From assembly GCA_016699305.1 (NCBI GenBank), contig CP064970.1, positions 389,647 through 453,646 on the forward strand: DNA of 64,000 nt, read 5' to 3'. Shown here piece by piece: positions 27,121 to 30,880 of this stretch (its first letter is position 1; every line of letters starts with the position of its first letter). Both the position numbers and the translations under genes were made by a program. The DNA is from Alphaproteobacteria bacterium (GTDB lineage: Bacteria; Pseudomonadota; Alphaproteobacteria; GCA-016699305). The notes beneath the pieces were generated by a model, which had not been told where the DNA came from, searched no databases, and saw only the letters and a list, made by a program, of their open reading frames with translations.

Positions 27121-27474
27121 TTAGTGATCTAACCCAACCATAGCCCTTGCCGTCCGGCGGACCTCAAACATTAATGAGATTACGACTCCGTTCGACTCCA
27201 ATTTAAAATGATCTTTTATAATAATAAATAATTTATTCATATAATCTTGAAACTTATCTTCAATTGCGATACGTTCTTCTTCATTGTAAATATTATTAGC
27301 AATATTTAATTCTCTACTGCTTGTTACATATATGATATCAGGGTGATTATCATATACATATTTAATAACTTGACGCATCAAGCCTTCATCAAAGAAAATA
27401 CTATGCTCATAGGGCACCTCCGGCAGCGGCGGCAATTGGGGCTTAGAAGTGGTGGATTCGGGCTGGTCGGTCAC
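27121..27474 (-). CDS. small low-GC protein, MTDQPEST-family paralog 1 (117 aa, GTG start)
   Basis: GTG start with AGGAGA RBS; first 19 aa near-identical to paralog at 30360..30704 because the 5' end lies inside a ~220-bp DNA repeat; body is AT-rich. Confidence 0.6.
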   Translation of the reverse strand: MTDQPESTTSKPQLPPLPEVPYEHSIFFDEGLMRQVIKYVYDNHPDIIYVTSSRELNIANNIYNEEERIAIEDKFQDYMNKLFIIIKDHFKLESNGVVISLMFEVRRTARAMVGLDH

Positions 27475-27637
27475 GGTGAGGTTCTCCTCTTGTAAAGTCG
27501 TTGGTGTTGAATGCGTCTGCTGTTCTCTTTTCTAAGGTTGTGCCAATTTATCACGCCGCCAAGCGGCATGTAAATTCTTTCACAATGCGACACGATGCCA
27601 CATTTGATTGGGTTACCGGCGTATTGTCGTTAACCAC
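27419..27637. repeat. junction repeat copy A (tail-encoding segment, RBS and first ~19 codons of downstream gene)
   Basis: Roughly 90-95% identical by eye to 30649..30866. Confidence 0.8.
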
Positions 27638-27760
27638 GATCAAATCGCTGTCCTGGCGTTGCAGCACCAGATCGGCCACGGTCAGACCCACCGAATAAGA
27701 GCAACCCTGGCATAGGCTTCTCCAAATTTCCTTGTTAGTTCGGCAGAAAGCAATTGATGT
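27551..27760 (-). pseudogene. fragment of an RTX beta-roll module fused to conserved tail peptide, no canonical start
   Basis: Open frame ...SYSVGLTVADLVLQRQDSDLIVVNDNTPVTQSNVASCRIVKEFTCRLAA*; ADLVL..SDLIV resembles the module motif of the big gene (ADVVLRREGSDLIV). Confidence 0.45.
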
Positions 27761-27870
27761 CTATATGCATCTGCTGGCCCGTTCTCTCTTCCGCCCAATT
27801 TAGATATAATGGATTCATTAACAACAGCTGCAACGACTCCACCAGTTAGTCTGTCATATGTTGTAGTCAC
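27682..27870 (-). CDS. hypothetical small protein (62 aa, GTG start)
   Basis: ORF with GGAGAG upstream; 3' end overlaps the RTX-fragment frame; may be non-coding. Confidence 0.3.
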   Translation of the reverse strand: MTTTYDRLTGGVVAAVVNESIISKLGGRENGPADAYRHQLLSAELTRKFGEAYARVALIRWV

Positions 27871-27891
27871 TTTTCTCTCCTGTAGTTATTT

Positions 27892-28338
27892 TCATGGGTT
27901 GGATAGGAAGCAGTAGTAGTCTGGATCACACACGCAGAACGCATGGCCATTCCCGCTGTAGTGAACTGTGTAACTGCAGCTTACCTTTCTATCATCATCT
28001 TTTGTTATACAACCAACTTTTTCTATTGTTCCAGACACTTTAATATCAAAGCTTATTGACTCAACAAGAGAATTTTTAGTTTTAAAAAGGAAGACACGCT
28101 TAGATAGGCCTTCTTTATTGCCATCAATAGCTATATTGCTGTCAGTCACCATGTTTTTGTTAATGTAACTTCTTAGTATATATACACTTTCGTTCGTATC
28201 ATTGTAAAATGACACATCATTATCTTTTGTTCTCATAAAAAAATAATAAAAAGATAGCACTATAAGGGCAACAAACACAGGTATAAGCATGCATGTGGTG
28301 AAACGAACCCCGCATAGTTTACATATGTACTTAGTCAT
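27892..28338 (-). CDS. low-GC membrane-anchored small protein (candidate immunity protein)
   Basis: AGGAGA RBS; N-terminal hydrophobic anchor CMLIPVFVALIVLSFYYFF; AT-rich; lies directly downstream of the SLT-head gene. Confidence 0.6.
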   Translation of the reverse strand: MTKYICKLCGVRFTTCMLIPVFVALIVLSFYYFFMRTKDNDVSFYNDTNESVYILRSYINKNMVTDSNIAIDGNKEGLSKRVFLFKTKNSLVESISFDIKVSGTIEKVGCITKDDDRKVSCSYTVHYSGNGHAFCVCDPDYYCFLSNP

Positions 28339-28361
28339 TCTAGCCTTCTCCTAGCCAACCA

Positions 28362-29519
28362 TTACGCTGCATGATGCCGTGTAAATTCTTTCACGCCACG
28401 ATACAATATTGTATGGTGTGCGTTGAGCGGCAGGTTGTCGTTGCTGCCCGCGATGGCATAATTGCTCGCGGTGGCGTTCAGGTTGATGCTGGCGATGCCG
28501 GTCTCTGCCAGAGTCTTTAACTCCGCTGCTTGGCTGACGCCGTCCTGGTTCAGATCGCGCCAGACTTTCAAATTGGCGAACTGAGCATCCGCCGCGCTGA
28601 TCTTGCCGTCTTTGTTCGAGTCCAACGTCGCCAGCGCCAGAAACCCATCCGCCTGACCCGTCTTATCCCCAAACAATTCCCCATGATCGTCAATCACCCC
28701 ATTCCCATTCACATCCCGCGCCAGCAACCCATCATCCGACTTCACCCACGCGCTCGCCTCGCGGAAACCATCCTTGTCAATATCCCAATACACCCCATTC
28801 GGACCCGTCAACTCAACGCCGTCTCCGTCAAGATCCAACACCAGAGGCGAACCTTGCTCGGAGGCTTGGTTGAATTTGGCCAGCAACTCCGCCTGCCAAC
28901 CGGGAAGCGCGACACACTGATTACCAAAAATGTTCATTACCTTGTTATAAAAAGGAATAATATCTTGACGAGAAAGTAGCGTTCCTGGGGTATCAACACC
29001 TTTAACAAAACTAGATCCTAGGCCATCATGATAGAATGCATAATAATATTCAGGGCCAAGGCCCTGGCGCTCACATTTATCTTTAATTTTATTAAAGAAT
29101 GATACCATTGTCTGAATGCTTATATAAGCATCAAACTGACCAGCCTGCCCAACTGGCGTACTCACAGACGTGTTTTCTTTCCAAGTGGTGTTGATAAACT
29201 GGCCGAGACCCGCCGCTGTTGTCGTCCCAGCTGCAGCATCCGGATTAAAACCAGATTCTTCTCTTATAATCGACAATATAAAAGCAACACCACTATTGCT
29301 CATGCCCTTTTCTTGACCGGTCTGAATGACCATGTCGATAACTTTCATCTGAACATCTGGATCTGCATCGCCAACCTTGCGGCTACGTCCGGCTAATCTT
29401 CCAGCTGTACGATCAATTGGATCATTGTAGTGACTTTCTTTTATAACTTGGTCAGCTCTATAGGATCCACCTTTTTTGCTATTTACATACAGCTGATATA
29501 ATTTACTATTGTTTGACAT
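28362..29519 (-). CDS. lytic-transglycosylase (SLT-like) head fused to the RTX Ca-binding segment; orphan head module
   Basis: GGAGGT RBS; N-terminal ~195 aa low-GC with SLT-like motifs (SIIREESGFNP...AAGLGQF); residues ~196-355 near-identical to residues ~283-437 of the RTX protein; ends with diverged copy of the conserved tail (...KEFTRHHAA*). Confidence 0.75.
   Translation of the reverse strand: MSNNSKLYQLYVNSKKGGSYRADQVIKESHYNDPIDRTAGRLAGRSRKVGDADPDVQMKVIDMVIQTGQEKGMSNSGVAFILSIIREESGFNPDAAAGTTTAAGLGQFINTTWKENTSVSTPVGQAGQFDAYISIQTMVSFFNKIKDKCERQGLGPEYYYAFYHDGLGSSFVKGVDTPGTLLSRQDIIPFYNKVMNIFGNQCVALPGWQAELLAKFNQASEQGSPLVLDLDGDGVELTGPNGVYWDIDKDGFREASAWVKSDDGLLARDVNGNGVIDDHGELFGDKTGQADGFLALATLDSNKDGKISAADAQFANLKVWRDLNQDGVSQAAELKTLAETGIASINLNATASNYAIAGSNDNLPLNAHHTILYRGVKEFTRHHAA
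28445..28883. repeat. ~440-bp segment near-identical to 25477..25915 of the RTX gene
   Basis: Shadow ORFs 25715..25966 and 28530..28979 encode near-identical peptides; protein segments FNQASEQGSPLVLDLDGDGVELTGPNGVYWDID... shared. Confidence 0.8.
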
Positions 29520-29564
29520 GATTATTACCTCCAGCTTGATTAGATAGGTTACATGGTTTCAATT

Positions 29565-30203
29565 TTACTGATTTTCCTTCGCATCTTTTAGACGCGCCCA
29601 CGGTATATTATCTAAAAAAATTGACATTCCATGTTTAATAGTTTCTTTATCCTGAACGAACATTTTTTCAAAAACATCCCAGAATTTATTTTTCTTACTT
29701 ATATAATCTCCAGATCGCGCAATTAATTTTCCTTTTATTGTATCAATAATAATATGCTCTTCGCAACTATCACAATTTCCGTAATTTGCTACAGAAACAA
29801 TGACATATTGTCCTTTTTTTATTGATTCAATACAAGAAAAAGCTAAAACATGCATATTCATAACATTTATACTATTCTTTTTATCTAGATCATAAAACCT
29901 AATATACTTCTTGTTTGCTAAATAATCTTCCTTATTTCCAATACTCATAGTTTGAGAGATACATGTTTTATATGATTCTTCTCTTGTACACACAGAGTAC
30001 AAGCTGACATCACTTCCATCAGAACACGTTGCCGAAACTGTATAAAGGGCAAAACCCGGATCAGCGCACACCCCTACAGACGCTGTAAAAACAGAGAAAA
30101 CGAGAATTATAAAGAAGAACACCACTGTTCCACAAAGGTTCTTGCACAATCTGATGCCAGTACACTCCGTGTTTATTCTAGAAGGTTTCGATGTTTTATT
30201 CAT
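29565..30203 (-). CDS. low-GC secreted Cys-rich protein (candidate immunity protein)
   Basis: Start set at MNKTSKPS (GGAGAC RBS); signal-peptide-like GTVVFFFIILVFSVFTASVGVCA; many Cys; AT-rich. Confidence 0.55.
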   Translation of the reverse strand: MNKTSKPSRINTECTGIRLCKNLCGTVVFFFIILVFSVFTASVGVCADPGFALYTVSATCSDGSDVSLYSVCTREESYKTCISQTMSIGNKEDYLANKKYIRFYDLDKKNSINVMNMHVLAFSCIESIKKGQYVIVSVANYGNCDSCEEHIIIDTIKGKLIARSGDYISKKNKFWDVFEKMFVQDKETIKHGMSIFLDNIPWARLKDAKENQ

Positions 30204-30248
30204 AGGGTCTCCACATCTGGCTGTTATAAGTTGACCACTCACGCTTCT

Positions 30249-30348
30249 ATCACGCCGCCAAGCGGCATGTAGGTTCTTTCACAATGCGACACGATACCGC
30301 ATTTGATTGGGTTACCGGCGTATTGTCGTTAACCATATCGTCATTTCT
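30249..30348. repeat. junction (tail) repeat copy iii
   Basis: Encodes ...DDMVNDNTPVTQSNAVSCRIVKEPTCRLAA* on minus strand, immediately upstream of gene 29565..30203. Confidence 0.75.
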
Positions 30349-30359
30349 TCCTCCACGAT

Positions 30360-30704
30360 TTATATAGACATACCAAACATAAGACGCGCACGTAATCGTG
30401 CTTCCCAGAACAGATCTGTAGTTAGAACAGAACCATCAATATTCAAATGCGATCCTATATAATAATAAGAATCTCTGGGAACAGAAGAATAATACTCGTT
30501 ATTCAACACTTCAAGGTCTGTCTCCTTCTCTCCCTTTCTTTCCCATTCGGCTATCCTCAGAAAAAGATCAGGTCGTTCGTCATAAATAGTCTTCATCACT
30601 TTATCCACCAGTTCCTGGGGGCATCTCTTAGGGTGAAACGCTTCCAACTCCGGCAGCGGCGGCAATTGGGGCTTAGGTGCAGTGGATTCGGGCTGGTCAG
30701 TCAC
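30360..30704 (-). CDS. small low-GC protein, MTDQPEST-family paralog 2 (114 aa, GTG start)
   Basis: Same 5' repeat-encoded N-terminus MTDQPESTAPKPQLPPLPE; body diverged but alignable (LVDKVMKTIYDERPDLF vs LMRQVIKYVYDNHPDII); similar C-terminus. Confidence 0.6.
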   Translation of the reverse strand: MTDQPESTAPKPQLPPLPELEAFHPKRCPQELVDKVMKTIYDERPDLFLRIAEWERKGEKETDLEVLNNEYYSSVPRDSYYYIGSHLNIDGSVLTTDLFWEARLRARLMFGMSI

Positions 30705-30880
30705 GGTGAGGTTCTCCTCTTGTAAAGTCGTTGGTGTTGAATAGGTCTGCTGTTCTCTTTTCTAAGGTTGTGCCAATTTATCACGCCGCCAAGCGGCATG
30801 TAAATTCATTCACAATGAGACACGATGCCACATTTGTATGAGCTTGAGGCGTATTGTCGTTAACCATATCGTCATTCGCA
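30649..30880. repeat. junction repeat copy B
   Basis: See copy A; additionally shares CCATATCGTCATT with copy iii. Confidence 0.8.

Follow-up and report, generated by a model that had tools for sequence, protein, structure and literature searches.

An array of truncated cassettes lies upstream of an FrpC-like RTX gene

We analyzed a 64,000-nucleotide (nt) window (positions 1-64,000) of contig CP064970.1 from an Alphaproteobacteria bacterium, in which a short repeat occurs four times among the genes and gene fragments that precede a long FrpC-like RTX gene (the main gene). The array features are all on the minus strand. Read 5' to 3', they are a conserved fragment, repeat copy C, the small gene X1, repeat copy B, the small gene Y1, a 385-amino-acid (aa) open reading frame (ORF) that joins an SLT domain to part of a self-processing module (SPM), repeat copy D, the small gene Y2, a 62-aa remnant, a 47-nt RTX piece, repeat copy A, the small gene X2, and the main gene (Table 1). 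The array consists of four stacked units, each with a repeat, an X or Y small gene, an N-terminal domain, and a truncated SPM/RTX fragment, and the last unit runs into the full-length gene. Each repeat separates a unit's truncated conserved fragment from the upstream gene of the unit that follows. We propose, with a probability of about 0.6, that the repeat is the common upstream boundary of toxin-immunity cassettes that became stacked, as displaced ("orphan") N-terminal modules, on the 5' side of a self-processing RTX gene of the FrpC type.

The conserved pieces of the array correspond to parts of the main gene. The 385-aa ORF is composed of an SLT/lysozyme-like domain, the first 134 SPM residues, and repeat copy D, and its SPM-coding part (433 nt) is a direct repeat of 25477-25909, 2,968 nt away. 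G+C contents are 0.23 to 0.45 in the variable parts and 0.55 to 0.62 in the conserved parts. Differences between the SPM fragments and the main gene are mostly synonymous, with a ratio of nonsynonymous to synonymous substitution rates (dN/dS) of 0.14 and dS values of 0.06 and 0.25. This low dN/dS indicates that the fragments diverged under selection as working genes and points to their being alleles from other lineages rather than products of local decay. Apart from SLT and DUF6973, the N-terminal domains and the proteins encoded upstream of them had no match in Pfam, NCBIfam, or PDB, and only the SLT match points to an antibacterial activity. For most proteins of the window, a look-up of the exact sequence gave no entry.

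The junction repeat has four copies with a shared place in each unit

A repeat finder reported three 98-nt copies (27549-27646, 30248-30345, and 30779-30876) with 87 to 88% identity to the reference and detected a 34-nt core of the repeat at 28361-28394, in copy D. By blastn, 27549-27636 and 30248-30335 are 95.5% identical, and 30248-30345 and 30779-30876 are 86.7% identical. A 23-mer (ACATGCCGCTTGGCGGCGTGATA) and an 18-mer (GGTTAACGACAATACGCC) each have three exact occurrences in the 64 kb, all within the repeat, where shuffled sequences give an expectation of 0.00 to 0.01. The three near-identical copies and one diverged copy described in the original prediction are thus real and far beyond chance. 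Copy D matches the others in length and stop position and retains AACGACAA and a perfect 15-mer, GTGAAAGAATTTACA. The four copies are packed into 3.4 kb in constant orientation and at a constant place relative to the cassettes, with a start codon 23 to 77 nt downstream of every copy. Pattern and translated searches found no further copies in the other 60 kb of the window, and the repeat had no terminal inverted repeats or target duplications.

The left edges of copies B and C fall at an identical nucleotide, and those of A and D lie within ~12 nt of that point. On the right, B and D end at the stop codon, and A and C continue for 134 nt. It had been claimed that two copies, A and B, extend through the ribosome-binding site (RBS) and the first 19 codons of the next gene; two copies do so, but they are the first and the third, A and C, whose extended units are 92% identical over 222 nt. 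The likeness of B to A stops at the stop codon. The further claim that each copy ends a reading frame is correct for A, C, and D, but copy B, just past the stop of the 114-aa X1 gene, follows no substantial ORF, and the Cys-containing tail ascribed to all copies is missing from D, which has no Cys (...VKEFTRHHAA). Copies A to C carry stop codons in all three frames; D carries them in two, and the third frame stops just past it.

A GCCGC-N3-GCGGC hairpin had also been noted. It is present in A to C as GCCGC-TTG-GCGGC, extends to 8 pairs, and is lost in D. Folding of the repeats gave unremarkable z-scores of -1.0 to -2.6, and we set aside the idea of a structured RNA on these ordinary z-scores and the missing hairpin of copy D. 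No intrinsic terminator was called at any copy; the hairpin has no U tract and is followed by GUGAUAAAUUGG. Derivation of the repeat from transfer-messenger RNA (tmRNA) was also rejected, since ARAGORN found no tmRNA and Rfam at E ≤ 1 returned nothing in 20000-36000.

Table 1. Array features and the main gene, in 5'-to-3' order; positions are those of the window
Feature	Position	Strand	Description
Cassette-0 remnant	30881..31195	-	Equivalent to main aa 419-523, comprising the final third of the SPM and 44 further aa; 92% nt identity, dN/dS 0.14
Repeat copy C	30779..30876	-	98 nt; ends a 140-aa fragment ORF, ...SPVA joined to ANDDMVNDNTPQAHTNVASCLIVNEFTCRLAA and stop
Extended unit C	30645..30866	-	222 nt: core, spacer, and X1 codons 1-19
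X1	30360..30704	-	114 aa; X family, candidate immunity gene for main-type toxin; partner toxin missing
Repeat copy B	30248..30345	-	98 nt, NDDM plus tail; 15 nt past the X1 stop; no RTX fragment fused
Y1	29565..30203	-	212 aa, N-terminal membrane anchor, low GC; candidate immunity gene for the SLT toxin after it
Orphan N-terminal candidate toxin domain	28878..29519	-	Lytic transglycosylase/lysozyme-like; Pfam SLT, 28.7 bits versus cutoff of 21.3
Truncated SPM fragment of SLT cassette	28445..28877	-	Equivalent to main aa 294-437; 98% nt identity, dN/dS 0.14
Diverged repeat copy D	28362..28444	-	~60% identical; ends the 385-aa ORF, ...AIAG joined to SNDNLPLNAHHTILYRGVKEFTRHHAA and stop
Y2	27892..28338	-	148 aa, N-terminal membrane anchor, low GC; candidate immunity gene of cassette 3
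Cassette-3 N-terminal remnant	27682..27870	-	62-aa ORF; weak DUF6973 match (E = 0.13), DUF6973 being the N-terminal domain of relative L008
HCBP_related/RTX fragment	27635..27681	-	47 nt, equivalent to main-gene 24260-24306 (87%); in another frame than the 62-aa ORF, in frame with the tail of copy A
Repeat copy A	27549..27636	-	Core of 88 nt; ends the frame ...TVADLVLQRQDSDLIV joined to VNDNTPVTQSNVASCRIVKEFTCRLAA and stop (27551-27553)
Extended unit A	27415..27636	-	222 nt: core, 79-nt spacer (2 differences versus copy C), and X2 codons 1-19
X2	27121..27474	-	117 aa; X family; directly upstream of main toxin gene; predicted structure helical, pLDDT 79
True 5' part of main gene	26789..27073	-	Good RBS, ATG at 27070, 43 codons, in-frame TAA (26942-26944), 51 open codons into ATG at 26788
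Main FrpC-like RTX gene	21164..26788	-	1,874-aa ORF; variable N-terminal domain, SPM, RTX repeats

The main gene encodes an FrpC-type protein

The main gene has 26 HemolysinCabind matches (Pfam, E = 1e-101) and six HCBP_related modules, and its N-terminal domain contains a Gly/Ala-rich hydrophobic stretch. The SPM has been defined as ~177 residues (FrpC 415-591) with a DxDxDG loop, three EF-hand-like loops, and two fold-stabilizing Trp residues (PMC7078468). The SPM of the main gene (aa 304-480, window 25349-25879) matched chain residues 1-175 of the FrpC structure 6SJW_A (phmmer, E = 1.3e-43), starting at the first proline of the SPM (main P304). Alignment to 6SJW showed a DLDGDG calcium loop, three EF-hand-like loops, and conservation of both structural Trp residues (features as given in PMC7078468).

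In FrpC, the SPM cuts Asp414-Pro415 after export and so frees the N-terminal domain, and FrpD, a lipoprotein encoded just upstream of frpC, binds FrpC residues 1-414 with a Kd of ~0.2 nM (PMC5233953, PMC5472700). The order of variable N-terminal domain, SPM, and RTX repeats is the same in the main protein as in the "clip-and-link" RTX proteins FrpC of Neisseria meningitidis and ApxIVA, and the main gene, like frpC with frpD, has a small gene directly upstream. The N-terminal 293/407 residues of FrpA and FrpC are completely different, with the remainder shared (PMC3034196), which parallels the different N-terminal parts found on a shared remainder here. Unlike in the frp system, the upstream proteins of the window have no sequence similarity to FrpD, and the window has an array of truncated cassettes with a junction repeat, for which the literature searched describes no counterpart at frp loci.

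Elsewhere in the window, the genes for ATP synthase gamma (17941-18816) and beta (19641-21092) are separated by a formate/nitrite transporter family gene (18820-19644), which overlaps the start of the beta gene.

X1 and X2 define a family with members next to main-type N-terminal domains in two loci

X1 and X2 are homologous throughout; 17 of the 19 residues encoded by the first 19 codons are identical, and identity is ~23% after residue 19. A profile built from the two proteins and run against 1.84 billion proteins gave 27 representatives, of ~105 aa or, in tandem form, ~220 aa, with the motifs IPPLPEL, QExVDxxLxxIYExRPDLF, and FWEARRRARLMYGM. None of the members is in Pfam, and the predicted model of X2 had no significant fold match. 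X1 and X2 belong to an undescribed family of ~105-aa helical proteins. One member (2588-3235 of locus L019) lies directly upstream of the SPM-RTX gene of that locus, and the N-terminal domain encoded by this gene is homologous to that of the main gene (E = 1e-7). Because X is paired with the main-type toxin in two independent loci, this arrangement supports the view that X is its probable cognate partner, and X may be its immunity protein.

Relatives have the same architecture, and one has a second array

We compared 27 genomic and metagenomic loci that contain a relative of the SPM region, at 40 to 60% identity; the SPM-RTX part is conserved at 40 to 57% identity. About 25 of the 27 have a single SPM copy after 180 to 690 aa that are unrelated between loci; examples are DUF6973 (L008), Rhs repeats (L009), a metalloprotease motif (L011), and Gly/Ala-rich hydrophobic stretches (L006 and L019). 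A seam motif, LPxW..L(I/L)D.W..A...SPLVLDLDGDG, spans the change from variable to conserved sequence. The relatives whose 5' region was open to inspection have a same-strand upstream ORF that encodes a signal peptide, lipobox, or membrane anchor and is often low in GC and often overlaps the toxin start; no family match was found for these ORFs. The architecture is that of a polymorphic toxin whose variable end is N-terminal, as would be expected for a protein with a C-terminal secretion signal.

Several relatives end in ...ALETSGNLIAA or ...LITA, which is target-domain-like for a type I secretion system (T1SS), whereas the window protein ends in ...DSLATVIAANWK; the C-terminal secretion regions therefore differ within the SPM-RTX family. 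In the cyanobacterium Elainella saxicola (L009, 7922-12662), Rhs repeats and the Rhs core motif lie N-terminal to the SPM, so that the SPM is also found behind an Rhs-type region. A Sphingobium plasmid (L028, AP027326.1) has a 13-kb single gene (877-13911) with three SPM-like segments that adjoins a VirB/VirD4 type IV secretion cluster. Plasmid records in which the SPM matched several times were considered as orphan arrays and rejected; they proved to be giant multi-SPM genes or unannotated regions.

One metagenome locus (L026, 1-5600) contains two tandem units, each with an upstream signal-peptide gene followed by an N-terminal domain and a truncated SPM, and its second stump ends at an SPM position identical to that of the SLT stump in the window. 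Before each upstream gene there is an 85-nt palindrome-containing intergenic repeat (904-972 and 3199-3267) that ends in RBS-ATG and is unrelated in sequence to the window repeat. The window is thus not the only place where truncated cassettes are stacked with a repeat at their boundary.

A contig from another sample is consistent with exchange between repeat copies

Two short-read Logan contigs from other samples match the locus. One (L031, SRR11674044) is identical to 30329-28791, and the other (L030, SRR11673981) matches 27512-25834 at 99.3%. The first 98 nt of L030 carry all five copy-C variants joined to X2-specific (copy-A-side) sequence, with 29 identical nt between the last C variant and the first X2-specific base. 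The Logan assembly presumably used k = 31, and on that value 29 nt is too short for a false join. If L030 is not an assembly chimera, its sequence would reflect a natural exchange of copy A with copy C of the repeat. The ends of both contigs fall inside repeats, which is expected if the repeats exist in those samples too. L030 also has three single-base deletions, at window 27011, 26828, and 26208, that shift frames and are either sequencing errors or real decay.

Of the three options offered in the original prediction, the portable junction or recombination substrate fits best, in view of this contig and of the position of the element, which is always the seam between a truncated conserved fragment and the next cassette.

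How the array may have formed

We read the repeat as a probable scar of recombination and a homology arm, with added roles in stopping translation of the stump and, perhaps, in starting transcription of the immunity gene. The N-terminal domains would be antibacterial toxins that are exported by type I secretion and released by the SPM, and the upstream genes would confer immunity. A new cassette may enter with the same left flank and a single crossover in the SPM-coding region, an insertion that would push the previous module upstream and cut its SPM. The repeat would then halt translation of the resulting stump, and in the long copies it may equip the next immunity gene with a promoter and RBS. 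The repeats (88 to 222 nt) and the SPM fragments (47 to 433 nt) are direct repeats between which RecA could delete, duplicate, or swap cassettes. A 2,968-bp deletion between 28445-28877 and 25477-25909, for example, would place the SLT toxin, with Y1 upstream, on the full-length carrier. Two scenarios fit the left flank found at each seam: successive insertions that carried it, or an early tandem duplication with later replacement of modules and deletions. Neither accounts for the common left edge of B and C in differing contexts.

The tail frame is not conserved as a coding sequence

Substitutions in the tail frame do not show the pattern of the SPM fragments. Between A and B there are 0 synonymous and 4 nonsynonymous changes, dN/dS is 1.1 for A and C and 1.9 for B and C, and the codon positions are hit about equally. 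The reading frame of the repeat as a whole is without purifying selection, as judged from a dN/dS of at least 1 (versus 0.14 in the SPM fragments), the position of copy B after no substantial ORF, the loss of both Cys residues from copy D, and the absence of the tail from all of the 5.8 billion proteins searched. The proposal of a conserved coding tail was therefore not borne out, and the "conserved Cys tail" is probably incidental.

Observations that weigh against the cassette-boundary reading and alternative explanations

Several observations count against a stack of displaced toxin-immunity cassettes with the repeat as their boundary. The residue ahead of the SPM proline in the main protein is Ser (...EQGS/PLVLDLDGDG, S303-P304, window 25879-25881), where the FrpC processing site has Asp-Pro. 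Asp is needed to form the anhydride in FrpC cleavage. Most relatives have Ser or Thr at this position; Asp is found only in L011, and L026 has Glu. The main gene also has a premature stop at codon 43 (Table 1). Because this TAA is in frame, the N-terminal domain of L019 aligns straight across it, and the same stop is present in the L030 contig from another sample, the currently "active" main toxin is N-terminally disabled, and the stop is probably the reason that the main protein is missing from the protein database. No T1SS genes (ABC/MFP/TolC) were found among the window ORFs scanned; the T1SS genes of Neisseria are also apart from the frp genes (PMC3034196). The second array, L026, has no full-length gene downstream. 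The exchange seen in L030 falls in the X-gene part of the 222-nt unit and not in the 88-nt core, and it depends on this contig not being an assembly chimera.

The source of the repeat is a further difficulty for this reading. The repeat occurs in no relative and was absent from 5.8 billion proteins, metagenome and viral contigs, plasmids, phages, and all fetched loci. Six tests that sought the tail's source in the locus or the family all gave negative results. The tail had no homology to the main protein. With a hidden Markov model built on the six HCBP_related modules, alignment was confined to the RTX part of copy A, and copy D scored 3.3 bits, in the range of shuffled sequences. The best match of the tail DNA to the whole main gene, at aa 426-451, was not significant. 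Comparisons with a family profile of aa 396-475, with the collinear SPM continuation at aa 438-470 (p = 0.1 to 0.5), and with the 43-codon start of the main gene and the L019 N terminus were likewise negative. The tail had no Pfam family match. In addition, a purely illegitimate left join should not yield an identical left edge twice, as in B and C.

Three more facts fit this reading poorly and speak against pure accident: the copies preceded by an SPM/RTX fragment (A, C, and D) are without exception joined to it in one long frame (1/27 if independent), Ala-Ala-stop ends all four copies (with a synonymous GCA for the first Ala in D), and the final 23 nt are invariant in A to C. All three favor the rival reading that the tail is a selected C-terminal peptide, either an ssrA-like degradation tag (...LAA or ...HAA) that sends secretion-incompetent stumps to ClpXP or a minimal export signal. 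The true C termini of relatives (...LIAA or ...LITA) also favor a peptide, and the tail begins N-D-(D/N) and ends LAA, which resembles tmRNA tags. However, dN/dS is at least 1 among A to C with the codon positions evenly hit, copy B has no substantial ORF ahead of it, CRL has become RHH in D, no tmRNA or tmRNA-like RNA was found by ARAGORN or Rfam, and the tail matches no protein family. A hairpin or promoter spacer explains the identical last 23 nt equally well. We consider selection for such a peptide quite unlikely, and we give equally low odds to a degron or signal role confined to the extreme C terminus. A stronger version makes the element a purpose-built "cassette terminator" that is joined in frame to the stump, gives it an ssrA-like ...LAA end so that it is degraded, and with the same 88 nt restarts the next immunity gene. 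Although this would explain why the fusions are in frame, why the last 23 nt do not vary, and why the copies end in Ala-Ala and, if true, would be a new device that keeps silent toxin reserves safe, it too seems improbable to us.

A mainly transcriptional element, a portable promoter and 5' leader that makes each immunity gene independent of the decayed gene upstream, had also been offered in the original prediction. Copies A and C contain TTTACA-18 nt-TAAATT with an upstream TG, the 15-mer with the -35-like hexamer (GTGAAAGAATTTACA) is the only long block retained in D, conservation within the 222-nt unit is highest in the 79-nt spacer to X (2 differences), and each copy precedes a start codon by a short distance. 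The sigma-70-like match is only 9/12, however, and a scan gave 18 such sites versus 10 expected; copy B has a poor -10 hexamer (TAGAAG) and copy D has none, the spacer is taken up by a G+C-rich hairpin, and there is no terminator. We regard a primarily transcriptional element as unlikely, and this part of the original prediction stands only as a weak possibility. A promoter or leader role of the long copies A and C is plausible, and such a role is compatible with a cassette boundary rather than opposed to it.

We think it very improbable that the repeat is the site of a dedicated site-specific recombinase, att or attC-like, that captures cassettes as in integrons. Like integron attC sites, it is a short hairpin-bearing unit at every cassette boundary, B and C have the same left edge in different contexts, and two copies flank X1 as they would after a Campbell-type insertion. 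Against this, none of the window ORFs scanned was an integrase or recombinase gene and the neighbors are housekeeping genes, the folding is unremarkable and lacks the paired inverted repeats of attC architecture, and the boundaries are not fixed, with a different left edge in A and D and a right edge at the stop in B and D but 134 nt past it in A and C. Chance accumulation of a generic dispersed repeat, of the repetitive extragenic palindromic or miniature inverted-repeat transposable element type, is hardly credible either: the repeat is short and contains a hairpin and the L026 intergenic repeat resembles a generic palindromic element, but the clustering of four copies in 3.4 kb with no copy in the remaining 60 kb of the window, the missing terminal inverted repeats and target duplications, and the constant orientation and position relative to the cassettes all speak against it.

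Comparison with known polymorphic toxin systems

The cassette-boundary reading places the locus beside contact-dependent growth inhibition (CDI; cdiA-CT/cdiI), Rhs, and MafB orphan arrays. Like these, it combines a conserved delivery gene with swappable modules of putative toxin domains and candidate immunity genes, its spare modules retain a conserved piece able to recombine with the main gene, and its variable parts are low in GC. The window is the mirror image, however, with the toxin N-terminal and the immunity gene and orphans upstream, and delivery would be by type I secretion. The retained conserved piece is 3' of the toxin and cut off, so the orphans of the window need a stop, which the repeat supplies.

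FrpC and FrpD have been proposed by Bayer-Santos et al. to be a T1SS antibacterial effector and immunity pair (PMC6759196). The same report describes Smlt3024/Smlt3025 of Stenotrophomonas maltophilia, whose type IV secretion system effector has homology to N-terminal domains found in many RTX proteins and whose immunity protein has an FrpD fold (PMC6759196). This pair gives experimental support that such N-terminal domains can be antibacterial, although it uses another secretion system and no sequence relation to the window domains was seen. That FrpC-type proteins are type I secreted antibacterial effectors with an upstream immunity gene is a hypothesis.

The wider locus is a more interesting result than the repeat itself. 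The array of displaced modules shows typical features of interbacterial polymorphic toxins in reversed orientation; one displaced module carries a peptidoglycan-hydrolase domain, and SLT with Y1 and the main type with X are candidate toxin-immunity pairs. The junction repeat shows how a mirror-image array handles the open 3' ends of its displaced genes, a problem that is absent in C-terminal systems, and the array suggests that the SPM is the release device of a polymorphic toxin.

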